Assembly: GCA_046329495.1 (NCBI GenBank)
Contig: JAXLUO010000018.1
Span: 15,045-79,044, forward strand
Origin: Chitinophagales bacterium
GTDB lineage: Bacteria > Bacteroidota > Bacteroidia > Chitinophagales > LD1
Reading direction: 5' to 3'
DNA length: 64,000 nucleotides
The position numbers and the translations under genes were made by a program. The notes beneath the pieces were generated by a model. The model was given only the letters and a program-made list of their open reading frames with translations, was not told the origin of the DNA and made no database searches. This document shows, one piece after another, positions 37,522 through 62,447 of this stretch (its first letter is position 1; every line of letters begins with the position of its first letter).

Positions 37522-38526
37522 TTACGGAATATCGGTATAGTTAATCTCTACCCAATCCGATCCGTTCCACAACAACATTAAACTGTCGCCGTCGCCCATA
37601 TCGCGGCTGCTGGTACTTAAGCGCATGTTGGTGGTGGCAGGGTTGCTTTCTACACGTATGTTATTACCGCCGGTAGCAGTTACATTCAGCAACAAAAGCT
37701 GCCCGCGTACCACACCATCACTCAGCGTTGTTTTAGCCGAGCCGCCGTTAACGGTCGTTACTATATTAAAGTAACTACGTCCGCTAACATCCAACGTAAA
37801 ATCGGTGGTTACGTTTACCGTGGTATCGCGTAGCGATATGGCGCCGTTAATATCCATAGCCGTGGCCGGTGTAACGGCTCCTCCGCCTACACACATTTTT
37901 TTCGAATTCATACTTACGCCATCCGCAGTAATCCGCATCGATTCGGTTCCGTTCCGCTTAAATACCACATCGCTGTTATCTATTGTACCCAGCACGGCCG
38001 GTGTGCCTAAGCCGGTATTACCACCGGTAGTCCAAACCGTATTCGTGCTCTTAATAGTATCGTTGCCCTGGCCCACCCATATAGTGCCGTGGTCGTTCAC
38101 ATCCATTACGGTTACCGAAACTGCCGGCGACTTTGCCGCATATAAAGCATAAGGCACACTCATAAGCTGACTGGTACCCATATCCGTATAATTAATGCCT
38201 GCTGCAGGGTCTAACTCTACCTGCATAAATCGTTTGCCGCTCCAGTCTACGGTATTAAAGTTGCCGCTCACGGTTGTGCCACCACCTACCACCACCGAAA
38301 ATATACCCAGCGGTGTAGTAATAATGCTATCCCGCTCACTGTATAAAATCGGACCCGTAGCGCTATCCGCGTGAATGCTGATTTGCACGGTTGCCAAATG
38401 GTTAGGCATTATACTCCCTTGGTTATCACGCAGCACTGCCTGATAATTAAAACCGGGCGCCTGGGCGTTCACAAATACAGAGAGAATAAGCAGAAGAACA
38501 AAAACGGGTAGTTTTTTGAAGATCAT
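37522..38526 (-). CDS. Secreted protein sharing the N-terminal domain of the collagen-like protein
   Basis: Signal peptide MIFKKLPVFVLLLILSVFVNAQA. FNYQAVLRD ... [15 protein letters not shown] aligns with aa 27-129 of the 996 aa protein. Confidence 0.7.
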   Translation of the reverse strand: MIFKKLPVFVLLLILSVFVNAQAPGFNYQAVLRDNQGSIMPNHLATVQISIHADSATGPILYSERDSIITTPLGIFSVVVGGGTTVSGNFNTVDWSGKRFMQVELDPAAGINYTDMGTSQLMSVPYALYAAKSPAVSVTVMDVNDHGTIWVGQGNDTIKSTNTVWTTGGNTGLGTPAVLGTIDNSDVVFKRNGTESMRITADGVSMNSKKMCVGGGAVTPATAMDINGAISLRDTTVNVTTDFTLDVSGRSYFNIVTTVNGGSAKTTLSDGVVRGQLLLLNVTATGGNNIRVESNPATTNMRLSTSSRDMGDGDSLMLLWNGSDWVEINYTDIP

Positions 38527-38801
38527 AGCAACTTGGTTATTCGGTAAAATGGTTCCAACCCTACAAACCACAGTTTGTAGGCATAGTGCATGAACGAATG
38601 CCGGTTAAGAAGGTTTCAAAATCAACCCAAATAAATTAACAAAAGCAATATATGTGGACTATTTGAAGCTTTTAACCGCGTTCGGATACATATACGCCAT
38701 ATTCCGCTAACCGGATCAATGCAATGGCAAAAAAAAGTTGATGTTATTTAAAAATAAGACGCCTCCGATCCTGAACTGATAGTTAATGTATTGTCCAACT
38801 A

Positions 38802-39731: not shown

Positions 39732-39897
39732 CTCTTCTTAAAATCAACTCAGTAAAGATATTTTAAATCTCATGAACAAGAATATTGCTGCCGTCTGCGT
39801 GGGTAGAAGAAAGAGTATACCAGCAAACCATTTTGTTAATTTTAAGTACTACTATTTGAAACTTTAAACCATTTAACCTATCTTTACAGAGCAATAA

Positions 39898-39910
39898 GTT
39901 CTTTGACAAC
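39898..39910 (+). promoter_or_regulatory. boxA-like motif GTTCTTTGACAAC in the conserved 5' module
   Basis: Identical 13-mer in copy C (58716-58728, minus strand) within otherwise diverged flanks. It resembles the rrn boxA motifs GCTCTTTAACAA and GTTCTTTGAAAAC as I recall them. Confidence 0.4.
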
Positions 39911-40178
39911 CTCAGTAAAACCTAAACCACCGGCAACCCACAACTGTCGCAAGGGTAAACTATACCTGCACACCGGGCACGAAATGTTATCTTAAGTCAA
40001 GCCAATGCCGGACAAAAGATGACATCTCTGTAGACCTGCCTGCCACAAACACACAGGATAACTATGCCCTGCCGCCAAACACTTTAAAATTCCGGCAATT
40101 TGTGCACGCAAAATCAACTGCACAAATGTGCACAAATGAAAACTTCTCTAATGCGTTCCATGTTGGAACTTGCCGAAA

Positions 40179-40629
40179 GTGTAAAGAAGTGTAAAGTTTA
40201 ACCTGCATTTATCTTGAAATTCCTCTACATCCAGAACATCCTGGTTCTAAAAGTGTAAAGGAGTGTAAAGTTGCAATTGCCGTGAACAGTGAACCGAGAA
40301 CTCTTTTAATTGTAAAGAAGTGTAAAGTTTGACCTGCATTTATCCTGAAAATCCTCTAGATCCTGAACATCCTGGTCCAAAAAGTGTAAAGAAGTGTAAA
40401 GTTCTATAAACTGTATTCTTTTTCTGTCTCTGTGTTAAATCATCGATTTCGATCATTTAACACAACCTTTTTCAGGACGCTACACGGGCTGTTAATCCTG
40501 AAATCCTCTAATCCTACGAATCCTAGTTCAGACAAAATTGTAACGAAGTGTAAAGTTTAACCTGCATTTATCCTGAAAATCCTCTAGATCCTGAACATCC
40601 TGGTCCAAAAAGTGTAAAGGAGTGTAAAG
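40179..40629 (+). promoter_or_regulatory. Iteron-like array: six (G/T)TGTAA(A/C)G-N3-GTGTAAAG sites (40179, 40253, 40310, 40384, 40538, 40612). Three pairs enclose about 50 bp tracts of ATCCT phased every 9-10 bp.
   Basis: Read directly. The tract cctgcatttatcctgaaaatcctctagatcctgaacatcctggtcc recurs at about 40202, 40333 and 40561. Confidence 0.7.
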
Positions 40630-40847
40630 TTTAAACCAAAAAAATTCTTTGCGTCTTTGTGTAAACCGCTTTTTTAATCGATTTAACACAAAAATCGCTC
40701 ATATGAATTTTTCTGTAACTTGTGCACAAGCTGAAAAGTGCACAAGCATGCACAAGTAGCTGTGGATAACCCCGGACTCTTCTGGCCTCCCATCAACGTT
40801 AAAAATACACTGCAAAACAGCCAATTAAGCGCAACGCTGCATTTTCA

Positions 40848-40874
40848 CCCCCTCTTTGCGAAGCAGAGAGGGGG
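40848..40874. other. Strong GC-rich hairpin (12 bp stem, 3 nt loop) with no T-tract
   Basis: ccccctctttgc gaa gcagagaggggg, one mismatch. Confidence 0.6.
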
Positions 40875-41080
40875 CCGGGGGGTGAGTCGAGGGCAAACTG
40901 GCTATCGAGAACACACCTACGGGGAACGAGGAACAATCCTGATTCAGCATTCTAAAATCAAAAATCCGTAATGATAGGCTTGATAGGCCTTTACGTGCAA
41001 CCAATCAATCCCTATCATTCCCAATCAAAAACTATCAAACCCTATCATAACTGTAAAACAGCAAGCCATCCATCTAAAGG

Positions 41081-41400
41081 TGTAACCTTTTTCAAAAAAT
41101 AAAACAACTCCGGCATCCTTGTATTTATCTGTGTATTATGTGCAATCGGTGGTTAACTGTATTTCAACCTTTAACTACCGCGCCAATCATAAAAATCTGT
41201 GTTTCTCTGCGTTCCATTAAAAGCGTGCCCCCTAATTCAATGTAACCTTTTCAAAAAAATAAAACAACTCCGGCATCCTTGTATTTATCTGTTTTAATCC
41301 GTGCAATCTGTGGTCAATTGTATTTCAAGCATTAAATACCGCGCCAATCATAAAAACCTGCGTTCATCTGCGTTCCATTGTATTACCCACCCATTCTCTA
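41081..41400 (+). repeat. Tandem repeat, 2 x about 160 bp, in the leader of the lipid operon
   Basis: gtaacctttt at 41082 and at 41242. The units share aaaataaaacaactccggcatccttgtatttatctgt and ccgcgccaatcataaaaa.ctg.gtt..tctgcgttccatt. Confidence 0.8.
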
Positions 41401-41475
41401 TATTGACTTTTATCACCCCAAAAACCTGCCTCCATTCCCCCGCACTTTCCTATTTTAACCCCTGCAAACTATACC

Positions 41476-43128
41476 ATGCAAGTAATAGACATACACCCCG
41501 ATTGGTGGAAGTGGGGCACTGCCGAAAAACGCAAGGCCCTAACCGATTATCCGAATCTGAAAACACATCTGGAACAACGTTGGAACATCGGCTTAAACAC
41601 CCGTCGCGATGAGCCCGCCAATTTTCCGGTACTAGCCAATGCCGATAACGCAAACAAACTGGAGATACTCTTTGGTCAGTTCAACTTTACAACAAAGGCC
41701 GATACCCGCTTAATTAAAAGCCTGGGCAAAAGCTATAAGGACCTTTTGTTTTCTGTTACCCGCACGGCTGTGCGTGTGGTGGATGGTGTGGTCTATCCGC
41801 AGAATCACGAGGAAATACAGCGTATTTTAGAGATTGCTTCGCGCGAAGGCGTGCTGGTAATGCCGTTCGGCGGTGGCAGCAACGTATGCGGCGATTTCGA
41901 TTTACCGGGTGCCGATGCCCGCCCCCGACTGGCTATGGACATGGCGAAGATGAATACCCTGCTACACCTCGATAAGGTAAACCACAAGGCCACCTTTCAG
42001 GCAGGTATTTATGGTCCGGCGCTGGAGCAAATGTTGAATGCACAGGGCTTTACCCTGGGTCATTTCCCGCAATCGTTTGAATATTCAACTCTCGGCGGTT
42101 GGGTGGTAACCCGCAGTGCAGGACAGGAAAGTTCCGGTTATGGTCGTATAGAAGATATTGCCATTGCAATAAAGGTGGCCACACCCACAGGCACCCTGCA
42201 AACCAGTAGTTACGAAGGCGACGCCGCCGGGGTGAACCTGAAAGGATTATACTTTGGCAGCGAAGGCATGTTTGGCGTAGTAACGGAAGTTACGGTGCGT
42301 ATCCATCCCCTGCCTAAAACAAAACAATGGGCTATTGCCTTATTCCCTAACTACCAAAGCGGGTTGAATGCGCTGCAAAGTTTAGTGCAGCAAAACATCT
42401 TCCCTACCGTTGTGCGCTATAGCGATGAGCACGAAACATTCTTTCTATCGCTGCTTTCGCACGAAACACCGGGCTTTGTTACCAACATAAAAGCAGCAGT
42501 AAAAAGCGCGGTGCTTAAATGGAAGAAGCTGGAGCAAGGCTGCATTATGATGATACGTTTTGAAGATGATTGTGGTGAAGATTGTCCGAAGTTGGAAAAA
42601 GCAAAACGCGCCTTTAGCGATAACGGTGCTATGCTGTTAGGCGATGCACTGGGCAAACGTTGGGAAACCAGCCGCTTTGGTTTGCCCTATTTGCGCGATG
42701 ACATGATGTTGCGCAATGTAGTGGTTGATACCATGGAAACCGTAGTACCCTGGAACAAAATTGACGAGTTGCGCAAAAAACTGCGCCTGGCTTTGGATAC
42801 CTGCACAGCCTTTCAAAATCAGCAGGGCATCCTGTTGGCGCATGTATCGCACGTATATACCAGTTGCGCCAGCATTTACTTTACCGTACTTACACCTATG
42901 CAAACAGGTAACGAAATGAACCAATGGCGCGAGATAAAGAAAACCGTAACCGATACGATTGTGAACAATGGTGGAGCAGTATCGCATCACCATGGCGTTG
43001 GTAAGGACCACCAGCCCTGGTATCTGCAAACTACCGATGAAGTAACCAAGCGCATTTTGCAAAGTGTAAAACAGGCTGTTGACCCGGCCAATATTCTTAA
43101 CCCCGGCAAGTTGTTCGATGAAGCGTGA
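41476..43128 (+). CDS. FAD-linked oxidase, alkyl-DHAP synthase (AGPS)-like
   Basis: 550 aa. PCMH-type FAD-binding domain (VVYPQNHEEIQRILEIASREGVLVMPFGGGSNVCG) and a C-terminal FAD-oxidase domain (HHHGVGKDH). Confidence 0.8.
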   Translation: MQVIDIHPDWWKWGTAEKRKALTDYPNLKTHLEQRWNIGLNTRRDEPANFPVLANADNANKLEILFGQFNFTTKADTRLIKSLGKSYKDLLFSVTRTAVRVVDGVVYPQNHEEIQRILEIASREGVLVMPFGGGSNVCGDFDLPGADARPRLAMDMAKMNTLLHLDKVNHKATFQAGIYGPALEQMLNAQGFTLGHFPQSFEYSTLGGWVVTRSAGQESSGYGRIEDIAIAIKVATPTGTLQTSSYEGDAAGVNLKGLYFGSEGMFGVVTEVTVRIHPLPKTKQWAIALFPNYQSGLNALQSLVQQNIFPTVVRYSDEHETFFLSLLSHETPGFVTNIKAAVKSAVLKWKKLEQGCIMMIRFEDDCGEDCPKLEKAKRAFSDNGAMLLGDALGKRWETSRFGLPYLRDDMMLRNVVVDTMETVVPWNKIDELRKKLRLALDTCTAFQNQQGILLAHVSHVYTSCASIYFTVLTPMQTGNEMNQWREIKKTVTDTIVNNGGAVSHHHGVGKDHQPWYLQTTDEVTKRILQSVKQAVDPANILNPGKLFDEA

Positions 43129-44677
43129 AGCACAAATACAGCGTGCACAAACCAAGCACTTTGATGTTGCCATCATCGGCGGCGGCATAACCGGCGCCGG
43201 CATTTTAATGAATGCCGTGCAGCAGGGTTTAAAAGCTGTGTTGATCGAAAAGAATGACTTTGCCTCGGGCACCAGCAGCCGCTCTTCTAAAATGATACAC
43301 GGCGGGTTGCGTTATATGCAGTACATGCAGTTTGGCTTAATTAAAGAAGCCCTGCAGGAGCGCGGCCATCTGCTCAAAAAGTTTCCGCACCTGGTTAAGC
43401 CGGTTGGTTATGTGTTCCCGCATCATGGTTCTAAACTGGGTTTGTGGGTAAAGAACATAGGCTTGACTTTGTATGACACCATGGCTGCTGATGCGGAGTT
43501 CCCGAAACATGTGTTACTCAACAAAGCGCAAACGCTTAGCGAAATAAACGGCTACACTACCGATAAACTGGCCGGCTCTATTTTGTATTACGATTGCGGC
43601 ACCAACGATGCCCGCTTAACGGTAGATACCATTTCGGAATGCATACACTACGGTGCGGTAGCTATTAATTATGTAAAGGCGATAAAAGCAGAAGGCGATG
43701 ATGCAATCACCACGCTACAATGCAACGATGTGTTAAGCGGAAGCAGCTTTAGTATTCAAGCTAAAGTATACATCAACGCCACCGGTATATGGACCGATGA
43801 AACCCTGCAACAGGTTGCCGGTATACCAAGCCGGCGCATGATGCCAACTAAGGGCATACATGTAGTGGTGAGCACCGATAAGTTACCCGCTAACCGCGTG
43901 GCCATTGTAAAAGTGCCCGGCGAAAAACGGTATATCTACAACCTGCCCTGGGAAAACAACCTGAGCATATTAGGTACTACCGATACTACCTACAACGGTC
44001 GCAACGATGAGGTACTCACAACCGAAGCAGATGTGCAATACATTCTGGATGCCTTCAACCACTGCTTCCCGAATTTGAAACTTACCTATGCCGATGTAAT
44101 AAGCGTTTATGCCGGTTTGCGTCCTCTATTAAACGACGAAGGAAAGGACAACAGCAGCCGCTCGCGCGAATACGAAACCTGGTGGAGCAAAACCAACTGG
44201 CTGAATATTGCCGGTGGTAAACTCACGTCGTTTTTAAATATGGGTAAGCGTTGCCTGCAGGTGGTACATCAAAGGTTCCCCGGCATGCAGGCCGGTATTC
44301 CTGAAAAAGAAACGTGGCACGGCACAGGCAAATGGGCCAAAGAGTATGGCGAGTTTGGTTTATTGATTGAAGCCATTGAACACGAAAAACCTGAACATAC
44401 ACAACGCATTAGTGCTGTGTATAACTACACCATAGCCGAACTGTTGTTTTTTATTCGCTACCAGTTTGCACAGCAGGTAGCAGATTTACTAACCCGCCGC
44501 ACCAGTGTTACTTATGCTATGCGCAATTATGATGCTTTACTTGTAAAGCAAGTGGCGGAATTGATGGCCCGCGAATTGCAAAAAGACGCTGCCTGGATAG
44601 AGGCAGCCTGCAATAGCTACTATCAGCATTGGCAGGAGTATCATCCCGCTTTCCTTACATCAACCCCTAAATCATAA
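43121..44677 (+). CDS. glpD: FAD-dependent glycerol-3-phosphate dehydrogenase/oxidase
   Basis: FDVAIIGGGITGAG dinucleotide motif, SSRSSKMIHGGLRY, GGKLTSF. The ATG overlaps the upstream stop (ATGAAGCGTGA). Confidence 0.85.
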   Translation, partial: KREAQIQRAQTKHFDVAIIGGGITGAGILMNAVQQGLKAVLIEKNDFASGTSSRSSKMIHGGLRYMQYMQFGLIKEALQERGHLLKKFPHLVKPVGYVFPHHGSKLGLWVKNIGLTLYDTMAADAEFPKHVLLNKAQTLSEINGYTTDKLAGSILYYDCGTNDARLTVDTISECIHYGAVAINYVKAIKAEGDDAITTLQCNDVLSGSSFSIQAKVYINATGIWTDETLQQVAGIPSRRMMPTKGIHVVVSTDKLPANRVAIVKVPGEKRYIYNLPWENNLSILGTTDTTYNGRNDEVLTTEADVQYILDAFNHCFPNLKLTYADVISVYAGLRPLLNDEGKDNSSRSREYETWWSKTNWLNIAGGKLTSFLNMGKRCLQVVHQRFPGMQAGIPEKETWHGTGKWAKEYGEFGLLIEAIEHEKPEHTQRISAVYNYTIAELLFFIRYQFAQQVADLLTRRTSVTYAMRNYDALLVKQVAELMARELQKDAAWIEAACNSYYQHWQEYHPAFLTSTPKS

Positions 44678-44684
44678 TTGCCGC

Positions 44685-45596
44685 ATGAAAAAGATCGCCT
44701 TTATTATCCATGGTCGCTTAAAAACACAAGGCCGTTTACAGCAGGAAGCATTAAGCACCTTTCAACCCGATTACCAGGTTTCGTTTTTATTAACGGAGCG
44801 TAGTGGTCATGCCACGGAACTTACCATGCGTGCGGTAGAACAGGGTTGCACGCACATTATCTGTTGTGGTGGCGATGGTAGTTTAAATGAATGCGCCAAC
44901 GGCCTTATGCAATGCGGCGATAAAGCAGCCGATGTGCAGTTAGGTGTGTTACCTTACGGCACCGGTAACGACTTTATCAAAACGGTTCAATCACCAAAAA
45001 CAATGGCTGCCTTAAAACAGGCTATCGAGAAGGGTGGTAAAAAGCTGATCGACTTAGGCCATGCCTGGTATACGGGAACAGATGGTCAACCGGTTAACCG
45101 CTACTTTATTAATATAACCGACATCGGTATGGGCGGTGTGGTAGCTGAAAAGTTGAGCCGTAGCAGTAAGATGTTCGGCTCTACCGTTACTTACCAATAC
45201 TCTATTATCTCCACCTTCTTTACTTACCAAAAGCAACCCATTAAGGTGCAGGCAGATAGTTTTAAGTACGAAGGCCGTGTGATGAACTTTGTAATTGCCA
45301 ACGGTATCTGGTTCGGTAGTGGCTTAGGTGTTTCGCCCGATTCGGATGTGTGCGATGGCTTGCTGAACGTAATTGCCCTGGGCGATGTGGGCACAGCCGA
45401 CTACTTTAAAAACCTGAGCAAAGTAAAGAAGGCCGAAAAAGTAATGCACCCCGAAGTGAAATATATGACAGCCCGCGAAGTAAATGTTGAATCATCATTA
45501 GGTCCCATTAGCATTGATATGGATGGGGAGTTTGTGGGCTACTCGCCCTTAAAGGTTAAAGCAGTACACAAAGCGCTTTGGTTTATTACGGGTTAA
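44685..45596 (+). CDS. Diacylglycerol kinase-family lipid kinase (YegS/BmrU/sphingosine kinase-like)
   Basis: GGDGSLNE and LPYGTGNDF motifs of the DAGK catalytic domain. 303 aa. Confidence 0.85.
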   Translation: MKKIAFIIHGRLKTQGRLQQEALSTFQPDYQVSFLLTERSGHATELTMRAVEQGCTHIICCGGDGSLNECANGLMQCGDKAADVQLGVLPYGTGNDFIKTVQSPKTMAALKQAIEKGGKKLIDLGHAWYTGTDGQPVNRYFINITDIGMGGVVAEKLSRSSKMFGSTVTYQYSIISTFFTYQKQPIKVQADSFKYEGRVMNFVIANGIWFGSGLGVSPDSDVCDGLLNVIALGDVGTADYFKNLSKVKKAEKVMHPEVKYMTAREVNVESSLGPISIDMDGEFVGYSPLKVKAVHKALWFITG

Positions 45597-45927
45597 AAGC
45601 GCATTTTACACATAAGTATTATTTGCTATTCAACTTGCAATTGGGCATATTTTACCACATAGCGAAAGTTCGCAGTTGTTAAATATGCTATGTTTTAAAG
45701 GCCGGTGTGGAGAAAAAAGAAGGCATAACATTTGTTGCATTTTCAGCAAAAAACACGCAAAAACAAATGCTTTTGACGTCATTTTATGCTCAATTCCATT
45801 TGTGCTCATTCATATATGCAAAGTGTTTTCCACGCATATTAAAGCGCCTAAAAACGAATTTTTCGCAAAAAGGCACATCTTTGTATTCATCCATAAAACG
45901 AAGCGATTATTCACGAAAAGGTTTTGA

Positions 45928-47151
45928 ATGAGTCTATTCGATAAATGCTACAACTATAACGATGCCGACCTTACTAAGGACAAAGGCGTGTATCCTTACT
46001 TCCGCCCTATTCAGGAAAGCGAAGGCCCCACTGTAATGATGGAAGGTAGAAGGGTGGTAATGGCAGGTTCTAACAATTACCTGGGCTTAACGGCACACCC
46101 TAAAGTAAAGGAAGCAGCATTTGCGGCGCTTAAGAAATACGGCACCAGTTGTTCCGGCTCACGCTTCCTAACCGGCACTATCGATCTGCACATTAAGTTG
46201 GAAGAAAAGATAGCACGCTTTATGGGCAAGGAAGCCGCACTGTTGTTCAGTACAGGATTCCAGGCCGGCCAGGGTGTTATCTTCCCTTTAATCAGCAAAG
46301 GCGATTACATCTTAAGCGACCGCGATAATCATAGCAGCATTGTAGCAGGCAACTTATTGAGTGCTTCTATGCACGCACATGTAGTACGCTACAAGCACAA
46401 CGATATGGAGGATTTGGAGAATCGCTTATCCAAAATCCCTGCCGAAGCAAACAAACTGATTGTTACCGATGGCGTGTTCAGCGCACATGGCTTGGTAGTT
46501 AACTTAACCGATCTTACCGCACTTGCTAAAAAGTATGGCGCACAGGTATTGGTAGATGATGCACACGGCTTTGGTGTACTTGGTCCTGATGGAAAAGGTA
46601 CCGTGCATCATTTCGGCGCTGAAAATGATGTAGACCTTATTGTATGTACCTTCAGCAAAACCTTAGCTTCTTTAGGTGGTTTTGTAGTTGGCGAAGAGCG
46701 CGTTATCAATTACCTGAAACATAAATCACCGGCCTTAATATTCTCTGCATCACCTACACCTGCATCTGTTGCAGCTGCTGATGCAGCACTGGATATATTA
46801 ATAGAACAACCGGAATTAGCAACACGTGTTCGCCGCAATGCTGAACGTGTTCGTCAGGGCTTGCGCGATGTAGGCTTTTCAGTTATTGAAGGCGAAGCAG
46901 CTATCGTTCCGGTTATCATCGGCGACGATCAAAAGACTTTTGCTATCTGGAAGATGTTATATGAAGAAGGCGTGTTTGTGAATGCGTTCATTTCGCCTGC
47001 AACGCCTCCGGGCATGCAAATGCTGCGTACCAGCTATATGGCTACACACGAAGACCACCACCTCGATTTTATAGTAGATAAATTTCTAAAGGTGGGCCGG
47101 CAACTCGATTTACTGAACCGCGACATAGAAGAAGAGCGCAAAAGAGCCTGA
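45928..47151 (+). CDS. spt: Alpha-oxoamine synthase, most similar to Bacteroidota/Sphingobacterium serine palmitoyltransferase
   Basis: YPYFRPI, GSNNYLGL, GSRFLTGT, LFSTGFQ, VDDAHG, the PLP lysine in TFSKTLASLGGF, and GVFVN. This matches my recollection of Sphingobacterium SPT better than BioF or Kbl. Confidence 0.7.
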   Translation: MSLFDKCYNYNDADLTKDKGVYPYFRPIQESEGPTVMMEGRRVVMAGSNNYLGLTAHPKVKEAAFAALKKYGTSCSGSRFLTGTIDLHIKLEEKIARFMGKEAALLFSTGFQAGQGVIFPLISKGDYILSDRDNHSSIVAGNLLSASMHAHVVRYKHNDMEDLENRLSKIPAEANKLIVTDGVFSAHGLVVNLTDLTALAKKYGAQVLVDDAHGFGVLGPDGKGTVHHFGAENDVDLIVCTFSKTLASLGGFVVGEERVINYLKHKSPALIFSASPTPASVAAADAALDILIEQPELATRVRRNAERVRQGLRDVGFSVIEGEAAIVPVIIGDDQKTFAIWKMLYEEGVFVNAFISPATPPGMQMLRTSYMATHEDHHLDFIVDKFLKVGRQLDLLNRDIEEERKRA

Positions 47152-47210
47152 TAAATTAAACTAATTATATTTCGGGATGCTATGCGCAGGCAGGCACCAA
47201 ACAAACAGTC

Positions 47211-48509
47211 ATGAAACAACGCCATTACTACTACATTGAAGGAAAAGATCCTCAAAACCCATCGCAATTAAAATACCTGCGCCGACAAATAGAATGTGAT
47301 GATGCATTTGATGGAGAGTTGATCCTTTTGGCTTTCCCGATTAAGTTGCTGGATGAAATATCAGGAGTCCTATCGCATTTTCAATTGCGCGATGATGCCG
47401 ACTATTTTTACAGCGAATGCCGTGAAGTAGTAAGCGTTCCTGAAAAGCACGTAAACGAAAAGGGCGAAGGTAAACTGACCTTTCAGAGTTACTTCCATAA
47501 GTTCCCTGAGTCGGTAAATTCATTCTTTGACGATGCTAAGGTGGTAGTCATCTTGCATCCACTGGATAGTGCCGATAACAACCGTCGTAACTACAATATG
47601 ATCGGTTACATCCATGCCAACCATATCGACTTCACTTCACCGGACGGACAACTGCATAAAGGCTATTACTACAATGTATTGCGATTAAGCGAACAAACGG
47701 TAAACGGTGAAGCTATTTATCGCCGCAAGCGACTATTCACAACTATGTTCAGTGTGTTATTGGATATCGTTACACTGGAAGACATTCACTTTGTATATGC
47801 CAGCATGGGCCGCGAAAACCAGGCCATTAACGATGCGCTGAAAATGAACAGCGAACGCCACGGCAAGTTTTTCGAAACCTTCCCGATGCGTAACAACACG
47901 CACATCAACATCATTTATGGCAGTGGCAGTGCCGCCAATAAGCTGGTAGACATCTCAAAAAATCACGAAGCCTTGCGCGAATACTACAGCAAGTTAAAGC
48001 AGCAGAAACACAACTTCGTATTCAACCAGATGCACAACGAGAGCAACTTTATGAATATGGTTAACCGTATTCTTAGCTCTTCGCCAACAAGTCGCATTTA
48101 TATGATGCCCGACAAAGCAGGTAACTTTGATGCAGCCGGCTTTACCATCAACTGGGGCGACTACATGCACCTGAAACTGCAAAACCCTAAAGGACTCTTT
48201 AAGGTTATTGATAGCATGAAAATTACCGATAAGATTCTGTATCCAACCTTATTGGTCGGCTCGCCTGAGAATGTGCGTCAACTGGCCAAAGGTGCTGCAT
48301 ATAAGTATCGTAAGGAACACGGCGTTCAGGTAACTGTATTAAACGGTCACGAAGGAGATCCATATTTTGATGTAAAGAAGAGTATCGTATATGATCCGTT
48401 TGTATACTTTGTAATCTATGACCGTCCGGAGACTTACGAAGCCATGAAGGCCCACAGTAGGGATGCCGCCGGTAACACCCGCATCTTTATTGAAACGCCC
48501 ATGTTATAA
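47211..48509 (+). CDS. Hypothetical protein, 432 aa, function unknown
   Basis: Long ORF with coding-like composition, 59 nt downstream of the spt-like gene on the same strand. No motif recognised. Confidence 0.6.
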   Translation: MKQRHYYYIEGKDPQNPSQLKYLRRQIECDDAFDGELILLAFPIKLLDEISGVLSHFQLRDDADYFYSECREVVSVPEKHVNEKGEGKLTFQSYFHKFPESVNSFFDDAKVVVILHPLDSADNNRRNYNMIGYIHANHIDFTSPDGQLHKGYYYNVLRLSEQTVNGEAIYRRKRLFTTMFSVLLDIVTLEDIHFVYASMGRENQAINDALKMNSERHGKFFETFPMRNNTHINIIYGSGSAANKLVDISKNHEALREYYSKLKQQKHNFVFNQMHNESNFMNMVNRILSSSPTSRIYMMPDKAGNFDAAGFTINWGDYMHLKLQNPKGLFKVIDSMKITDKILYPTLLVGSPENVRQLAKGAAYKYRKEHGVQVTVLNGHEGDPYFDVKKSIVYDPFVYFVIYDRPETYEAMKAHSRDAAGNTRIFIETPML

Positions 48510-48685
48510 CAGGTAACGTAATTACGCTTAAAGTCGCGAAGTATAATCAAGTTGATTTCATCCAATTCGTTGAACCTTGGGTCCTAATGGCAAGAGTATT
48601 GTGCGTGTAATGAGTGTTCTCATGGCGGGTTTTAAAATTGGCCCTAATTTTGCACCTTCACTCCTAATCCCACAAATTAACAGAT

Positions 48686-49504
48686 ATGAAAAAGCACCTC
48701 CTTCCCTTCGCTATAGCCCTTATTGCGGCTATAATTGTTGCAGGTTGTAAAAAGAAAACCGATGGCTTCGACAGCGATACGGCTACTTCGTATTCGACCA
48801 TTGATAACCTCTTTAAGGATGTAAATAAGGTAATTAACGACGCAGCAGCAGAAAACAACCTGAGTGGCAAAATGGAATCAACCGAAAGCCTTTGTGCGGA
48901 AGTTACAATTACCCCGGCCGACCTTGTTACCTTCCCTAAAACCGTAGTGGTTGACTTTGGCAGCGTAGGCTGTATCGATATGAATGGCGTTACCCGCAAG
49001 GGTAAATTCACCGCTGTGTTCACAAACTACCTTAACCAACCCGGTGCACACGTTGAAGTTACCTTTCAGGACTATTATGTAAACGGAGTTAAACTGGAAG
49101 GCATTTACGATCTGGCCAACACCAGCCCCAACACTAACTCCCGCTCCTTTGCAGATACCGTTACAAATGGTAAAGCAACAACACCTGACAACAAATTCTG
49201 CACCTGGACATCTTACCGCAGCTCCGTACAAAGCGCTGGCTTTAACACCCCCACTTTAACTGACGACGAGTACACCGGCCAGGCGCAAAGCTTTGGTGTA
49301 GGTTTTGGAGGTAAAAACTTCAATGCAACTTCTACCAACATTGTTTGGCGTTTGGCTTGCCGCTACCTGGTAAGTGGTAATGTATCCATCCTCAGCGGCA
49401 CCGACCCTACACCAATCTTAGTTGATTTCGGTAGCGGCACCTGCGATAACAAGTATGATGTATCCTATAGCATCTACCATACTGCGCTCGTGTTCTGGTA
49501 TTAG
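48686..49504 (+). CDS. Hypothetical lipoprotein
   Basis: Signal plus lipobox (IIVAGC). 272 aa. Confidence 0.6.
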   Translation: MKKHLLPFAIALIAAIIVAGCKKKTDGFDSDTATSYSTIDNLFKDVNKVINDAAAENNLSGKMESTESLCAEVTITPADLVTFPKTVVVDFGSVGCIDMNGVTRKGKFTAVFTNYLNQPGAHVEVTFQDYYVNGVKLEGIYDLANTSPNTNSRSFADTVTNGKATTPDNKFCTWTSYRSSVQSAGFNTPTLTDDEYTGQAQSFGVGFGGKNFNATSTNIVWRLACRYLVSGNVSILSGTDPTPILVDFGSGTCDNKYDVSYSIYHTALVFWY

Positions 49505-49507
49505 AAA

Positions 49508-49921
49508 TTAATTACGGGGCTCAATCAATAACTCATTGTAACCGGTCTGGGCATCTTGTCTTCGGGCAAAGTTCAGACTGGTTATTTCTCCTATAACAAT
49601 CTCGGCTGTTGTATAAATGAGGTTGCCATTCAATAAGTGGCCTCCGGTAACCTGCCCATCACTATCTGCAATTGACATATGTAGATGCGCGGCTCCATTA
49701 CCAATAGTGCCCACCAGCGAAACAATCTCGAACTTATTATCCAGCAGCATGCCTTCCTGACAATCGGCAAAGCGAAGGCTGGCCTGTTGTAAACTGCCAT
49801 TGCAGGTTGCTACAAAGGCAGCCTTTAGCTGATGCGTTTCCGCAAATGCCAGTAATTCAATCTTTAAATCCTGCCCAGGCTTCAAGCGCAGGGCATAGTA
49901 GGTTGCAGGGCTACCCGTCAT
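49508..49921 (-). CDS. PPC (DUF296) domain protein
   Basis: RLKPGQDL ... FEIVSLVGTI ... HLHMSIADSDGQVTGGHL is the typical DUF296/PPC pattern. Confidence 0.7.
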   Translation of the reverse strand: MTGSPATYYALRLKPGQDLKIELLAFAETHQLKAAFVATCNGSLQQASLRFADCQEGMLLDNKFEIVSLVGTIGNGAAHLHMSIADSDGQVTGGHLLNGNLIYTTAEIVIGEITSLNFARRQDAQTGYNELLIEPRN

Positions 49922-49926
49922 AGGGT

Positions 49927-50883
49927 TTATTTCATTTCCTTTATAGTAATAGGTGCTACCCCAATCTTCTTACATACCGCAGCAGCACCACGGTTGGCCC
50001 ATTGGGCTATTTCTTTCAAGCCGTACTTCTGAGCAAACAACAGTGCAGAGATACTTATTACGGTATCCCCCGCTCCCGATACATCCGCTGCCTTTATACT
50101 GCGAGCCGGCACAATAAAGGATTGTCCGTCCTTAGTAAAGCAGAAGATGCCGTTAGCACCCAGTGTAACCATCAGGTTTTTAAACCGTGTTTTGCGGCGC
50201 AATTCTTCGGCACCACTACGCAGGCTATCTAAACTCTTAGGGTTAATGCGGTAGCCAATGGCTTCACTTAACTCGCGCAGGTTTGGTTTAAACAGGTCTA
50301 TTGCCTGATATTCCATAAAGTTGCGCTCCTTAGGATCAACTGATACAGGGATACCATTCTTAGTAGCCAGCAACAATATCTGTTTGATAAAGTACTTGGT
50401 TAGCACACCTTTATTATAATCCTGCAGAATGATGATATCGATCTTTTGATTGGCCAGCGTTTTCTTAAACTCCTTAATCAGCAGGTTCTCTTGCGCTTCT
50501 TCCACGTCGTCAACTTCCTCTTCATCAAAGCGCACTACTTGCTTATCCTCATCAAAAATGCGGGTCTTAAGCGTGGTTACACGGCCTTTATGCTGCAGCA
50601 CATGGTTGGTCTTCACACCTTTTGCATTCAGCATGTTTAATAACATAGCGCCAGTTGCATCACGACCAATCATGGTAAGCAACAATGGATTAGCGCCAAG
50701 TGCTAACAAGTTCAAGGCTACGTTAGCTGCACCACCGGGGCGGGCTTCTTTCTTCAATACCTCCACCACAGGCACCGGCGCTTCGGGCGATATGCGGTTT
50801 ACCTCGCCAAACAGGTAAAAGTCAACCATTACATCCCCTATCACCAGCACATTCAGGTCGTTGAAATTTAATTTAGTAGCCAT
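49927..50883 (-). CDS. PfkB-family sugar kinase, D-glycero-beta-D-manno-heptose-7-phosphate kinase (RfaE domain I)-like
   Basis: VLVIGDVMVDFY, GGAANVA, and the C-terminal DVSGAGDT anion-hole motif. Confidence 0.75.
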   Translation of the reverse strand: MATKLNFNDLNVLVIGDVMVDFYLFGEVNRISPEAPVPVVEVLKKEARPGGAANVALNLLALGANPLLLTMIGRDATGAMLLNMLNAKGVKTNHVLQHKGRVTTLKTRIFDEDKQVVRFDEEEVDDVEEAQENLLIKEFKKTLANQKIDIIILQDYNKGVLTKYFIKQILLLATKNGIPVSVDPKERNFMEYQAIDLFKPNLRELSEAIGYRINPKSLDSLRSGAEELRRKTRFKNLMVTLGANGIFCFTKDGQSFIVPARSIKAADVSGAGDTVISISALLFAQKYGLKEIAQWANRGAAAVCKKIGVAPITIKEMK

Positions 50884-50971
50884 ATCTTATAACCAATTAA
50901 GCACAACAACCCTGCACATTTCTACATGTTGCAGGGCTGTTGTATAAAGAAGAATTGCAGTTTCGTTCAAA

Positions 50972-52183
50972 TTAAGCAAGGTTGGCAAACGCCGCTTTCA
51001 TGCGCTTGCAGGCTTCAGTAAGTTTTTGTTCGCTGGTAGCATAGCTAATGCGCAGGCAGTTCTTATCGCCAAACGCCTCGCCGCTTACTACACCTATCTT
51101 GGCTTCGCTCAGTAAATACAGCGATATGTCTTCCGGTGTGTTCATCACCTTATCGTTAAACTTTTTACCAAAGTAAGCGCTTACATCAAAGAAGAAGTAA
51201 AACGCACCATCAGGCAAGTTCACTTTCAAGCCTGGGATTTCCTTCAATAAACCATAAACCAAATCGCGGCGTTTGCGGAACTCTTCTACCATCTTCATCG
51301 AAGGTTCTACACTACCCAATAAGGCTGCTTCACCGGCCTTTTGTGCAATAGAACAAGTGCCGGAAGTAAACTGACCCTGCATTTTATCGCATGCCTTGGC
51401 AATAGCCAATGGTGCGCCAATGTATCCTAAACGCCAACCGGTCATAGCAAATCCCTTGCTAAAACCGTTCACGGTTATTACCTGTTCTTTAATATCTGCA
51501 AACGATGCCAGGCTGGTATGCTTTTTACCGGTAAAGTTGATGTACTCGTAAATTTCATCACATAACACAAATACATTCGGGTGGCGCTTTAACATAGCCG
51601 CCAAGGCTGCCAGTTCTTCATACTCATATACTGAACCTGTAGGATTGCAGGGTGAAGAGAAGATGATAAGCTTGGTTTTAGGTGTAATATGTTTCTCTAA
51701 TTCTGTAGCACTAACTTTAAAGTTAGTTTCAATTCCTGCAGCAACCTCTATGCATTTAGCCTCTGCCAATTCAGCGATAGCTGCATAGCTAACCCAATAA
51801 GGGGCAGGCAGTAACACTTCATCACCTGGGTTTATTAAACTCAACACCACATTAGCGATACTTTGCTTAGCACCTGTGCTTACTACTATTTGATCAACGG
51901 TATAATCCAGTCCGTTATCGCGCTTAAACTTTTCAGCAATTGCCTTGCGCAGTTCAGGGTAACCCGGTACCGGGGTGTATTTAGTGTAACCTTTATCGAT
52001 GGCATCTTTGGCAGCATCTTTAATATGCTGTGGGGTATCAAAATCAGGTTCGCCTAAGCTAAGGTCGATAACATCGTGGCCTTGTGCCTTTAATTCGCGG
52101 CTAAGTTTCGCCATTTTAATAGTGGCGCTTTCCTGCATGTTGTTAATACGTTCCGAAAGATAGTTTGCCATTGCCTGGGTCAT
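50972..52183 (-). CDS. Class I/II PLP-dependent (aspartate) aminotransferase
   Basis: LSLGEPDF, SSPCNPTG, and the PLP lysine in NGFSKGFAMTGWRLGY. The start is set at MTQAM. Confidence 0.85.
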   Translation of the reverse strand: MTQAMANYLSERINNMQESATIKMAKLSRELKAQGHDVIDLSLGEPDFDTPQHIKDAAKDAIDKGYTKYTPVPGYPELRKAIAEKFKRDNGLDYTVDQIVVSTGAKQSIANVVLSLINPGDEVLLPAPYWVSYAAIAELAEAKCIEVAAGIETNFKVSATELEKHITPKTKLIIFSSPCNPTGSVYEYEELAALAAMLKRHPNVFVLCDEIYEYINFTGKKHTSLASFADIKEQVITVNGFSKGFAMTGWRLGYIGAPLAIAKACDKMQGQFTSGTCSIAQKAGEAALLGSVEPSMKMVEEFRKRRDLVYGLLKEIPGLKVNLPDGAFYFFFDVSAYFGKKFNDKVMNTPEDISLYLLSEAKIGVVSGEAFGDKNCLRISYATSEQKLTEACKRMKAAFANLA

Positions 52184-52384
52184 GCTTGTTTTTTGTGCGT
52201 TTACGGCAATTTTGCCGCCGCCGCGAAAATACAACACAGCGAACATTTTACCCCTGTTTTTGCAAAAAGTAATGCACTATATGTGGATGCTTCTTCCTGC
52301 TACTGCCAGCGGGCTACTAAGGGATGCCTGCTAAAGCAAAACGCCCCTTTGCAGGAGCGTTTGCTAATATGCTCCATCTTAAGT

Positions 52385-54175
52385 TTAGTCGTTCAGTTTA
52401 AGTACGGCGATAAAGGCCTGTTGGGGCACCTCAACCTTACCAAACTGGCGCATCTTCTTTTTACCCTTCTTCTGCTTCTCCAACAGCTTACGTTTACGGC
52501 TGATATCACCACCATAACACTTGGCTGTAACGTCCTTACGGATAGCAGATATGTTTTCGCGGGCGATGATCTTGGCGCCGATGGCTGCCTGAATAGGAAT
52601 CATAAACTGCTGGCGCGGAATCAATTCCTTCAGCTTTTCGCACATCTTACGGCCAAAATCTTCGGCCTTGGTACGGTGAATCATCGAACTGAAGGCATCC
52701 ACTACTTCGCTGTTTAACATAATGTCCAGCTTCACTAAGTCGCCGGCACGGTAATCAACCGGGTGGTAATCGAAAGAGGCGTAACCGCGGCTGATAGACT
52801 TTAAGCGGTCGTAGAAGTCGAATACAATCTCGGCCAGCGGCATCTCGAACATTAACTCTACACGGTCTTCGGTGAGGTAGTTCTGATTTAACAGGATACC
52901 GCGCTTTTCCATACACAAGGTCATAATAGAACCGATGTACTCCGGCTTGGTAATCACCTGGGCACGGATATATGGTTCTTCCAAGTGGTCGATACGCGAT
53001 ACATCCGGCATATCGGCCGGGTTGTGGATGGTAATTTCATCACCATTGGTAAGGTAAGCCTGGTAGCTAACCTGTGGAACGGTGGTAATAATGGTCATAT
53101 CGTATTCGCGTTCCAAACGTTCCTGCACAATTTCCAGGTGCAATAAACCAAGGAAGCCGCAACGGAAACCAAAGCCCAGCGCTATCGAAGTTTCGGGTTC
53201 ATATACCAAGGAGGCATCATTCAACTGCAACTTCTCCAAAGAGTCGCGCAGATCCTCGTAATCATCGTTATCCATTGGGTAGATACCGGCAAATACCATT
53301 GGCTTCACATCTTCGAAACCATGGATGGCTTCTTTACAAGGATTGGCCTGAGTAGTAATGGTATCACCCACTTTAATCTCTTTGGCATTCTTAATGCCGG
53401 TAATGATATAACCTACGTCGCCGGTTTTTACCTCACTACGTGGTTCCAGATCCAGGCGCAGGATACCCACTTCATCGGCCAGGTAGTTTGCGCCTGTGTT
53501 AACGAACTTAACTTTGTCGTTCTTTTTCAGGCTACCATCCAGAATACGGAAGTAGGCGATTACACCGCGGAAAGGGTTAAAAACCGAGTCGAAAATCAAA
53601 GCACGTAAAGGCGCATTCGGATCGCCTTTAGGGGCCGGTAACTTATCGATGATAGCATCAAATATCTTATCTACACCCAAGCCGGTGCGGCCAGAGGCAA
53701 AGATGATCTCCTCGCGCTTACAACCTACCAACTGCACCATCTGGTCTGCTACCAACTCGGGGTTGGCGCCGTCCATATCAATTTTGTTCACCACCGGTAT
53801 AATGGTAAGGCCCTGGTCCAGCGCCAGGTACAGGTTACTGATGGTTTGTGCCTGAATACCCTGGGCAGCATCTACCAGCAACAAGGCGCCTTCGCAGGCG
53901 GCCAGTGAACGCGATACTTCGTAACTGAAGTCAACGTGGCCGGGGGTATCAATCAGGTTCAATACATATTTCTTGCCATCGCGGATAAAGTCCATCTGTA
54001 TGGCGTGACTTTTAATAGTAATGCCGCGTTCGCGTTCCAGGTCCATGTTATCCAACACGGTATCCATCATAGCGCGCTCGCTGATGGTTTTGGTGGTTTC
54101 GATAAGGCGGTCGGCCAGGGTGCTTTTACCGTGGTCGATGTGAGCGATAATGCAGAAGTTGCGGATATTTTCCAT
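52385..54175 (-). CDS. lepA: Translation elongation factor 4 (LepA)
   Basis: [32 protein letters not shown], and a LepA-specific C-terminal domain. 596 aa. Confidence 0.97.
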
Positions 54176-58082: not shown

Positions 58083-58192
58083 ACAATAAATATAGAAGCA
58101 GTTTCAGCATTTTGGAAACGGACCGTAGAAAGCAAGGATTAAAGACGTTTGTTGTTAGAGGCCTGTTGTTTGTCGTTTTGATTTGTGAGGGG

Positions 58193-58805
58193 TTATCAAC
58201 ACTGCTTGTGCATGCTTGTGCAAGTTTTTGCTTGTGCACAAGTTACAGAATTTTTCATGTGATGATTTTTTGTGTTAAAATGGCCGAAAATCAGTGATTT
58301 CACACAAAGGCGCGAAGAATACAGTTTATCGAACTTTACACTCCTTTACACTTTTCTGAAAACAGAGATTAGAAATCAGAGATCAGAAATCAGACAACGT
58401 GGCGCTTTGCGCTGATGCAACTTTACACTCCTTTACACTTTTTGGACCAGGATGTTTAGGATGGATCAAAGGAGAGGGCGGAAAATTGGCCGTAAAGGAA
58501 CGCATTATTAAAATTTTCATTTGTGCACATTTGTACAGTTGATTTTGCGTGCACAAATTGCCGGAATTTTAAAGTGTTTGGCGGCGGGGCATAGTTATCC
58601 TCTGTGCTTTGCGGCAATTTGGTCTACAGAGATGTCATCTTTGCCCGGCAGAGGCTTGACTAAAGATAACATCTCGTGCCACTGTTAGGTTGCCGGTGGT
58701 TTAGTGTTTCCCAGGGTTGTCAAAGAACTTATTACGTTGTAAAGATAGCGTATAGGGTTTAAAGTTTCAAATATAGATACTATAAATTAACAAAATAGTT
58801 TGATG
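58193..58805 (-). repeat. Copy C (about 610 bp, inverted) of the multi-copy noncoding element
   Basis: Its reverse complement aligns block by block with 39822-40770. It includes an approximately 85 nt block with 2 mismatches (ggataactatgccc..aatgtgcacaaatgaaaa). It has two GTGTAAAG-N3-GTGTAAAG sites (58335-58352, 58421-58438), the palindrome at 58231-58242, and TTATCAACA at 58193-58201. Confidence 0.9.
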
Positions 58806-59030
58806 AAGAGTTTGGGGCGAAGTTTTCAGACCTATCGTAAGAATAGGGGCAGGCGGTGTTCCTTAGTTACCCATGCCTGTCTGTGCGGACACAGACAGGG
58901 GCGCAGCCTACAAATTACAAGGAAAGAACTCTCTTAAAACAGAAGCACAAAGCGGAAGATTGCTTCCGGACGATGGCTCTGATTGATTTTATTGGAATAT
59001 CCATCGCAATGACACGCTGTTTTAGAAAAT

Positions 59031-59056
59031 AAAAAAGGCCACCCGAAGGCAGCCTT
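59031..59056 (-). terminator. Rho-independent terminator of sdhCAB
   Basis: The minus-strand RNA reads GGCUGCC UUCG GGUGGCC followed by U6, 22 nt after the sdhB stop. Confidence 0.8.
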
Positions 59057-59078
59057 TTATATTGTAAACCGGCACACC

Positions 59079-59825
<747 letters not shown>

Positions 59826-59832
59826 AATTTAA

Positions 59833-60088
59833 ATTTTAATGGAACACAGATTTTTTATGATCGTTATGATTGATCAAGATCTATGTTTTTAAATACAGTT
59901 GAATATACTTTTCGTTTTATAGCCGGCTTTTTGCCGAAGTTCAATAATAACCCTACTTCAATTTTAATGGAACACAGATTTTTTATGATCGTTATGATTG
60001 ATCAAGATCTATGTTTTTAAATACAGTTGAATATACTTTTCGTTTTATAGCCGGCTTTTTGCCGAAGTTCAATAATAACCCTACTTCA
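59833..60088. repeat. Perfect tandem duplication, 2 x 128 bp
   Basis: 59833-59960 is identical to 59961-60088, read base by base. Each unit holds the left TIR and the last 32 codons of the GxxExxY gene. Confidence 0.9.
59864..59960 (-). pseudogene. Duplicated 3'-terminal fragment (32 codons) of the GxxExxY gene
   Basis: Lies in the first copy of the 128 bp duplication. No start codon or upstream coding sequence. Confidence 0.7.
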
Positions 60089-60402: not shown

Positions 60403-60464
60403 TTCCTACAGTTTACATCGGACCAGCGTTTTTCATAATCATCTTAACAAATCAGCGTTCCATT

Positions 60465-62402: not shown

Positions 62403-62447
62403 ATCACTTTTATTATTAGCGCCTGCAGCGCAGGCATTTCGAAACGC

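Follow-up and report, generated by a model that had tools for sequence, protein, structure and literature searches.

A serine palmitoyltransferase-like gene and a candidate N-acyltransferase of N-myristoyltransferase-like fold, side by side with a widespread flavoenzyme and lipid kinase trio in Chitinophagales-like Bacteroidota

We examined a five-gene lipid cluster at 41476-48509 of a 64,000-nucleotide (nt) stretch of contig JAXLUO010000018.1 from a Chitinophagales bacterium (GCA_046329495.1), hereafter the window. Genes 1 to 3 (module A) encode an AGPS-like flavoenzyme, a GlpD-like dehydrogenase and a lipid kinase, and genes 4 and 5 (module B) encode a serine palmitoyltransferase (SPT)-like alpha-oxoamine synthase (AOS) and an uncharacterised protein that we call P5. 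We lean towards reading the region as two autonomous lipid modules lying side by side in a Chitinophagales-like lineage, with gene 4 making an amino-ketone that P5 N-acylates. The new element is gene 5, which partners a distinct SPT subfamily, is predicted to have an N-myristoyltransferase (NMT)-like acyltransferase fold, and is put forward here as a candidate non-homologous ceramide synthase. An earlier, model-made reading of the same DNA (the original prediction) had annotated the genes, likened the first three to a trio possibly shared across phyla and proposed a combined pathway; the annotations and the cross-phylum trio are confirmed, and the combined pathway is mostly not supported. The substrates and products named below for both modules are predicted from gene structure, protein families, folds, residues and neighbourhood statistics.

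A distinct SPT-like subfamily paired with P5

Gene 4 (45928..47151, + strand, 407 amino acids (aa)), the first gene of module B, finds its best NCBIfam model in NF047600, which describes the CFB SPT (496.7 bits, compared with 370 for bioF and 367 for Kbl), and its best PDB match in the SPT of S. multivorum (3a2b, 401 bits, compared with 251 for Kbl, 219 for cysteate acyltransferase (CFAT) and 191 for BioF). By these scores the resemblance to the Sphingobacterium/Bacteroides SPT noted in the original prediction holds, with the NF047600 score lying below the model's cut-off of 640, and identities as BioF, Kbl or cysteate acyltransferase are ruled out. For calibration, the S. multivorum SPT itself (residues 9-394) reaches 730.9 bits against NF047600, and relatives of gene 4 reach 480.8 and 502.7.

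The active site of the S. multivorum enzyme includes Asn52, Tyr54, Gly80, Ser81, His138, Ser185, Asp210, Ala212, His213, Thr241, Ser243 and Lys244, among others (PMC10196870), and at 18 of the 23 active-site positions described there gene 4 carries the same residue. In common with the S. multivorum and Bacteroides SPTs, it keeps the pyridoxal phosphate lysine K244, His135, Asp210, His213 and most of the residues of the substrate pocket. It differs from the S. multivorum SPT in belonging to a tightly conserved subfamily of 480-503 bits that has P5 downstream and in which all 120 members have S53N, A79S and M271I, M186 is replaced throughout by A or T, and E187 varies. On these sequence comparisons gene 4 would represent a distinct sister subfamily of the Bacteroidota SPT, and it is probably an SPT whose substrate is predicted.

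P5 is encoded next (gene 5, 47211..48509, + strand, 432 aa), and an AOS gene lies directly upstream of a P5 gene in about 19 loci that span P5 identities from 95% down to 43%. Besides the window, these are L001, L009, L090, L092, L097-L101, L141, L146/L147, L148 and L149 (our labels for the loci), where P5 is 63-95% identical and the AOS just upstream is 80-93% identical to gene 4, together with a marine group in which the pair is retained at a P5 identity of 43-44% (L124-L127, also L150). The intergenic distance stays at about 40-280 nt while the other neighbours change, the commonest layout being DinB-DUF885-AOS-P5-ClpB. Judged by gene order, then, P5 is the constant partner of gene 4 in this lineage. 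The original prediction had listed gene 5 as an unknown protein in the cluster, and it does lack a family match, but it is not an appendage, being the tightest partner that the SPT-like gene has.

The pair also appears to carry its own control region. Between the two modules lies a spacer of 331 nt (45597..45927) with 34% G+C, compared with about 45% in the window, and 10 of 11 lineages conserve some 100 nt upstream of gene 4, irrespective of which gene comes before. In the window the conserved block occupies 45826..45883 on the + strand, reads TTTTCCAC ... ACGAATTTTTCGCA ... CATCTTTG and ends 44 nt before the ATG; across the lineages the motif consists of TTaTCCACA, GCGAAATTTTCnCA and CATCTTTG, and ends 44-55 nt before the gene-4 ATG. 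Where the spacer between kinase and AOS has shrunk to about 100 nt, at L090, only the conserved block proximal to gene 4 is kept. The block is a probable promoter or operator of genes 4-5, and its recurrence in 10 of 11 lineages makes very probable what had been suggested from the AT-rich gap, namely that gene 4 has a promoter of its own. Scans for sigma-70 promoters and terminators, a method unsuited to Bacteroidota, gave counts at or below shuffle expectation.

Several loci in this survey hold further genes of possible lipid function. At L102 (10927-13030) a P5 gene of 69% identity has no SPT-like gene upstream, and about 1.6 kb downstream of it there is a divergent gene for an alpha-oxoamine synthase, which scores best with the bioF model (295 bits), and then a short-chain dehydrogenase/reductase (SDR) gene; the two may be a different long-chain amino-lipid pair. 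A fatty-acid-hydroxylase-family gene (PF04116) comes after ClpB, two genes past AOS-P5, at L097 (12829-13650) and L098 (9364-10188), and may encode a lipid hydroxylase of the same pathway or be there by coincidence. Finally, a cluster of acyl carrier protein (ACP), ketoacyl-synthase, acyltransferase, LolA and ApeI-like genes, of the aryl-polyene/flexirubin type, stands divergently beside AOS-P5 at L149 (1-5591), and a similar cluster of that type lies about 6-10 kb from an unpaired P5 at L004 (1-3835).

The predicted fold of P5

As a single sequence P5 has no match in Pfam (E up to 1), NCBIfam or PDB, and its profile finds nothing in PDB at E up to 10; with all of these searches empty, membership of a described family was rejected. 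Among 1.84 billion representative sequences the P5 profile finds 38 clusters, all of them P5-like or fragments and about eight of them full length; the family is small and sharply bounded.

The AlphaFold2 model of P5, built on a 45-sequence alignment, has a predicted local distance difference test (pLDDT) score of 85.5 and a predicted template-modelling score (pTM) of 0.84. In a Foldseek search of PDB with this model, ranks 1-33 are all N-myristoyltransferases (E 1e-11 to 3e-9, template-modelling (TM) score 0.45-0.58, 10-12% identity), after which comes the tandem-GNAT protein Eis, and the top named matches among viral models are giant-virus NMTs. Going by the model, P5 is an NMT-type tandem-GNAT pseudo-dimer. 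This fold is built for binding fatty acyl-CoA and acylating an amine, and P5 is probably a new kind of fatty-acyl transferase.

The C-terminus is consistent with such a role. It falls in the same end column in 45 of 45 aligned members, as well as in seven distant representatives, and carries the terminal motif [FY]x[DE]xPx[LFIM]. NMT uses its C-terminal carboxylate as catalytic base, and by analogy a fixed C-terminus would be expected if the terminal carboxylate of P5 were catalytic too. The tandem-GNAT fold is what P5 has in common with the eukaryotic and giant-virus NMTs, to which it gives no profile match; unlike them, it is bacterial and has a lipid-forming enzyme rather than the translation machinery as its genomic partner.

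One further copy of P5, 65% identical, was found alone among Desulfobacterota-type genes in a metagenome-assembled genome (MAG) labelled Desulfomonile tiedjei (L002/L003). Its neighbours there, which include nitrogenase-cofactor-like and sigma-54 activator genes, suggest horizontal transfer or a mis-binned contig.

A lipid gene trio conserved across phyla

Module A opens with gene 1 (41476..43128, + strand, 550 aa; FAD_binding_4 and FAD-oxidase_C), an FAD enzyme of the alkyl-dihydroxyacetone phosphate (DHAP)-synthase, or AGPS, type. In PDB it matches the Dictyostelium AGPS 2uuu at 320 bits and the guinea-pig AGPS at 236 bits, compared with 93 bits for D-lactate dehydrogenase (D-LDH) and 78 for glycolate oxidase. 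Alignment sets R314, S458, Y468 and H504-H506 of gene 1 against R419, T568, Y578 and H615-H617 of the guinea-pig enzyme, and these positions are invariant across 20 bacterial homologues, with Ser in place of Thr at S458. In guinea-pig AGPS, catalytic roles are reported for Arg419, Thr568, Tyr578 and the His615-His617 loop (Razeto 2007 and Nenci 2012). By these scores and residues gene 1 is AGPS-like, and not GlcD or D-LDH. The original prediction had named kinship with D-lactate/glycolate oxidases as an outcome that would refute it; in the comparison AGPS proved far closer, and the HHH loop, Tyr and Arg are kept. A function as glycolate or D-lactate oxidase was rejected on the D-LDH score and on the GlcD model of NCBIfam, which gives 164 bits (cut-off 568).

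Gene 2 (43118..44677, + strand, 519 aa from its ATG; DAO and DAO_C) has as its best NCBIfam model the glycerol-3-phosphate dehydrogenase PRK12266, at 299 bits under a cut-off of 360, and for that reason the GlpD of the original prediction becomes GlpD-like here: an FAD-dependent enzyme with glycerol-3-phosphate as its predicted substrate. Module A ends with gene 3 (44685..45596, + strand, 303 aa; DAGK_cat and YegS_C), a soluble lipid kinase of the YegS/Rv2252/BmrU family that passes the TIGR00147 cut-off (128 bits, over 118.65), in keeping with its earlier assignment to the DAG-kinase family, and has DgkB (79 bits) and YegS as structure matches. The three genes are tightly packed. The ATG of gene 2 (43118, used here in place of the TTG at 43079 where the mechanical list of open reading frames (ORFs) begins) lies inside gene 1, whose TGA is 43126-43128; the junction reads ...GATGAAGCGTGA, where the sense codons overlap by 8 nt (11 nt with the stop included). 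A gap of 7 nt separates gene 2 from gene 3, and module A is translationally coupled.

To place the trio, one genome per species was scanned with a pattern, which yielded at least 80 AGPS-like loci at 33-40% identity, a sample rather than the nearest relatives, and the neighbours of the 80 listed loci were sought by tblastn with genes 2-5. A GlpD-like and a kinase-like gene both lie within 4.5 kb of the AGPS-like gene in 52 of the 80 listed loci, and just one of the two is near it in a further 13; only 8 of the listed loci with full flanks have AGPS alone, and a GlpD-like homologue adjoins it in 61 of the 80. The 80 listed loci represent Actinomycetota (Nocardia, Mycobacterium, Streptomyces), Bacteroidota, Alphaproteobacteria, Chloroflexota, Leptospira, Planctomycetes, Myxococcota and archaeal MAGs, and the 52 trios among them fall into three gene orders: divergent GlpD, then AGPS and kinase (G'AK, 36 listed loci, the actinobacterial form), AGPS>GlpD>kinase (AGK, nine listed loci, from Bacteroidota, Chloroflexia and archaeal MAGs), and GlpD>kinase>AGPS (GKA, seven listed loci, from Alphaproteobacteria).

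The Mycobacterium layout is within the 52, which bears out the original prediction's comparison with the M. tuberculosis glpD1-Rv2251-Rv2252 neighbourhood and its suspicion of a cross-phylum module. In M. tuberculosis glpD1 (Rv2249c), the Rv2250A/Rv2251 flavoprotein and Rv2252 put the same three protein families side by side. GlpD is divergent in Mycobacterium, Nocardia and Streptomyces, whereas in the Bacteroidota trio all three genes share a strand in the order AGPS>GlpD>kinase and overlap or nearly abut, and the identity of the Bacteroidota proteins to the actinobacterial ones is low (AGPS 34-38%, GlpD about 28%, kinase about 24%). Module A would be the Bacteroidota version of a widespread glpD1-Rv2251-Rv2252-type trio, separate from genes 4-5.

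In the literature as far as it was reachable, Rv2251 is treated only as an uncharacterised flavoprotein (PMC6689984), and we found no paper on the AGPS/GlpD/kinase trio as a unit. Discussion of bacterial AGPS there centres on Myxococcus, where the operon of the M. xanthus AGPS (MXAN_1676) holds FAR and acyltransferase-type genes (PMC13012113). Gene 1 has the same two domains as the eukaryotic and Myxococcus AGPS, with matching catalytic residues (Arg, Ser/Thr, Tyr, HHH loop), and differs from the Myxococcus enzyme in its partners, which are a GlpD-like enzyme and a lipid kinase, with neither FAR nor GNPAT nearby.

Module A would most likely act on DHAP-based glycerolipid intermediates. The kinase would phosphorylate an (alkyl/acyl)glycerol, feeding a pool of phosphorylated glycerolipids; the GlpD-like enzyme would form a 2-keto species (DHAP or acyl-DHAP); and the AGPS-like enzyme would swap ester for ether. 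The conservation of the AGPS residues argues for a genuine acyl/alkyl exchange on a DHAP-type ketone, and the three-step scheme is coherent yet speculative. Two observations weigh against it. No gene for FAR (fatty-acyl reductase) or GNPAT (DHAP acyltransferase) was found in the cluster or among the scanned neighbouring ORFs of the window, and canonical AGPS chemistry needs both, FAR for its fatty alcohol and GNPAT for its acyl-DHAP. In addition, Rv2252, the M. tuberculosis orthologue of the kinase, has been reported as an ordinary diacylglycerol (DAG) kinase, serving the synthesis of phosphatidylinositol mannosides (PMC3229680). Since the AGPS catalytic residues are intact, even with no FAR or GNPAT adjoining, the trio is a well-defined and testable candidate for a bacterial ether-type or DHAP-based lipid route and for the function of Rv2251, and the survey puts numbers on its conservation in Actinomycetota including Mycobacterium, Bacteroidota, Alphaproteobacteria, Chloroflexota and archaeal MAGs.

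One pathway or two modules

Four observations lead us to treat the trio and the pair as separate modules: within 10 kb of the 80 listed trio-type loci tblastn finds no relative of gene 4 or gene 5 (0/80), most AOS-P5 pairs occur without the trio, gene 4 has its private upstream motif, and one genome has AGPS-GlpD and AOS-P5 on a single contig with about 44 kb between them. All five genes together are found only in the window and at L009. The original prediction had advised checking whether the five genes are a conserved neighbourhood; as a unit they are not; the trio and the pair each are. The combined sphingolipid/glycerol-ether pathway proposed there sits poorly with the empty count among the listed trio loci.

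A pathway in which all five genes cooperate is the strongest rival reading, although we consider it unlikely. Here genes 4-5 would make, for instance, a long-chain base or ceramide that the kinase phosphorylates in the manner of CpgB and the P. gingivalis dhSphK, with AGPS and GlpD providing or altering a glycerol or ether head group or a second lipid. The five genes are contiguous on one strand, and bacterial kinases of the DAGK fold are known to phosphorylate ceramide and dihydrosphingosine (PMC10331486). The only evidence for integration as such is the persistence of the kinase beside the pair, in the layouts AGPS-GlpD-kinase-AOS-P5 (window, L009), AGPS-kinase-AOS-P5 without GlpD (L090) and DinB-kinase-AOS-P5 without AGPS or GlpD (L100), and in a neighbor-joining (NJ) tree the kinases adjoining AOS-P5 in these three layouts form one subclade inside the Bacteroidota trio kinases. 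The retention at L090 and L100 weighs against a full independence of the two modules.

Beyond the missing AOS and P5 at the listed trio loci, and the trio genes missing from most pairs, the 331-nt spacer with the private motif of the AOS counts against cooperation, and so does the kinase itself, which is orthologous to the trio kinases (it groups with those of Bacteroidota in the NJ tree) and not a member of a separate sphingolipid-kinase clade. The three layouts may, moreover, stem from a single juxtaposition with later deletions at the far end. In an NJ tree of AOS and P5, L100 branches outside several kinase-less lineages, and the kinase-AOS-P5 layouts are consistent with one old juxtaposition followed by far-end erosion or, equally, with selection keeping the kinase.

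Of the link between the kinase and sphingolipids that the original prediction had drawn, the position beside genes 4-5 in three layouts stands, and the grouping with trio kinases goes against it. Gene 3 shares the DAGK catalytic fold with the P. gingivalis dhSphK and with the ceramide kinase CpgB, which lies in the spt sphingolipid region of Caulobacter (PMC10331486, PMC11324152); it belongs with the trio kinases in the YegS/Rv2252/BmrU family, and is set apart from CpgB and dhSphK by family placement, their sequences not having been compared. Where a trio kinase does stand beside genes 4-5, it may phosphorylate the product of P5.

A proposed ceramide-type route

Taking the two modules as separate, module B would begin with gene 4 condensing an acyl-CoA or acyl-ACP and a small amino acid, L-serine being the likeliest, to give a 3-keto long-chain base. 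P5 would then N-acylate the free amine using a fatty acyl-CoA, and the resulting 3-keto-dihydroceramide-type lipid would be reduced by a reductase encoded elsewhere. In pairing an SPT-type enzyme with a predicted N-acyltransferase, module B corresponds to the opening two steps by which bacteria build ceramide: Spt makes 3-ketosphinganine, which an acyltransferase then N-acylates in the cytoplasm, and reduction by CerR comes later (PMC11087976); knockouts in B. fragilis likewise place acylation before reduction (bioRxiv 10.1101/2023.05.23.541633). A reductase of the kind found in spt-cerS-cerR is absent from the cluster in the window and present in the marine relatives L124, L125 and L127, where an NAD-dependent epimerase/dehydratase-family gene is divergent beside AOS-P5; at L127 an SDR gene also follows P5. 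We take CerR to belong to the same NAD-dependent epimerase/dehydratase class. In print, CerR has been described as a dehydrogenase (PMC11324152).

P5 would fill the ceramide-synthase role without detectable sequence kinship to described families. The role proposed for it equals that of the bacterial ceramide synthase bCerS (Caulobacter CCNA_01212; B. fragilis BF9343_4218), which N-acylates the SPT product before reduction (PMC11087976; bioRxiv 10.1101/2023.05.23.541633). In known Bacteroidota producers bCerS is encoded apart from spt (PMC11334938), whereas P5 adjoins the SPT-like gene in this lineage. Homologues of bCerS are widespread in Bacteroides and Proteobacteria (PMC11334938; bioRxiv 10.1101/2023.05.23.541633), and the mere 38 clusters found by the P5 profile argue, indirectly and with no bCerS sequence compared, that P5 is not detectably related to it. 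We tentatively suggest, as a possibility that falls somewhat short of an even chance, that P5 represents a ceramide-synthase or long-chain-base N-acyltransferase class of independent origin, the third of its kind: a soluble protein of NMT-like fold with a C-terminal carboxylate base, unrelated in sequence to the eukaryotic Lag1/CerS and to bCerS, and tied to a distinct SPT subfamily in uncultured Chitinophagales-like Bacteroidota. Surveys of sphingolipid producers look for homologues of Spt, of bCerS and of CerR, and many Spt-like genes have no bCerS nearby (PMC11334938). If P5 acylates as proposed, a group of environmental Bacteroidota would make ceramide-type lipids by a route invisible to current searches, and the NMT-like fold would gain a lipid-biosynthetic role in bacteria.

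A number of points weigh against this route. No reductase, ACP or acyl-ACP synthetase gene was found near the pair in the window. P5 copies at 42-52% identity, as well as the one in the Desulfomonile MAG, have no SPT-like neighbour, which argues that P5 is not strictly dependent on an adjoining gene 4. The likeness of P5 to NMT is at the level of the fold alone (TM about 0.5, 10-12% identity), and its C-terminal segment is modelled at low confidence (pLDDT about 54). As for gene 4, its score falls under the NF047600 cut-off, and both A79S (the position of human SPTLC1 C133) and S53N are near the substrate side chain, so the amino-acid substrate could differ.

Those last features are what would favour a product other than a sphingolipid, an N-acyl aminolipid for which gene 4 would use a glycine, alanine, cysteate- or homoserine-type substrate and P5 would acylate the result; we regard this as rather improbable. 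The gene-4 family scores 480-503 bits against a cut-off of 640 and a true SPT at 731, A79S and S53N are invariant where a water-mediated contact with the side chain occurs (PMC10196870), and the NCBI pipeline gives gene-4 orthologues generic names only. Against this, gene 4 agrees with the S. multivorum SPT at 18 of 23 active-site residues, the known cysteate acyltransferases stand much farther off (219 and 185 bits), and the Kbl and BioF models score about 125 bits under the SPT model.

That P5 is no lipid N-acyltransferase at all, but a protein or peptide N-acyltransferase (a true bacterial analogue of NMT) or a tandem-GNAT enzyme with another acceptor, its place next to gene 4 being inherited synteny, we think improbable: P5 is indeed unpaired in many loci (L002, L004, L103-L123), the DinB and ClpB neighbours common to paired and unpaired P5 clades suggest an old synteny, and the fold matches are protein N-myristoyltransferases, but the pair is kept about 40-280 nt apart across 43-95% P5 identity while other neighbours change, and bacterial ceramide clusters are known to work by this logic of an amine-forming enzyme and then an N-acyltransferase (PMC11087976).

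Gene layout and genomic surroundings

The five ORFs lie on one strand, and their gene structure is confirmed; the same-strand arrangement, the 8-nt overlap, the 7-nt gap and the AT-rich gap of about 330 nt given in the original prediction were all found in place. Strong family matches for four of the genes and the order kept at L009 argue that they are real genes and not chance ORFs. L009 (GCA_044225825.1) has all five genes in identical order at 79-95% amino-acid identity, and those relatives of genes 1, 4 and 5 that bear a name come from MAGs of Chitinophagales or Bacteroidota.

Downstream of P5, at 48686-49504 on the + strand, the window encodes a predicted lipoprotein of 272 aa with the N-terminal sequence MKKHLLPFAIALIAAIIVAGC and no family match, and this gene comes after P5 only in the window, L009 and L090. 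Upstream of gene 1 there is a 1.74-kb non-coding stretch (39732-41475) containing three 96-nt direct repeats (40177-40272, 40308-40403 and 40536-40631) and a 160-nt tandem duplication (41081-41240 / 41241-41379). An Rfam search of the two long non-coding stretches gave nothing credible, the sole match being to a plant miRNA model at E 0.36. Two genes further upstream have no connection with the lipid genes. One, at 35149-36999, encodes an adenylate/guanylate cyclase that has TPR repeats, and the other, at 37522-38571 on the - strand, a secreted protein of 349 aa whose C-terminal beta-sandwich domain is that of a phage depolymerase.

The 96-nt unit recurs in part, inverted near 58.3-58.5 kb and direct at 154-176, and copies related to the non-coding stretch are placed at 58189-58462 and 4-176. 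The window is collinear with L009 over 41346-53143. The sdhA/sdhB block, which precedes the AGPS gene at L009, lies inverted at 58189-64000 in the window, and an inversion of about 17 kb relative to L009 (41346-58189), the ends of which coincide with repeat copies, encloses the whole lipid cluster.

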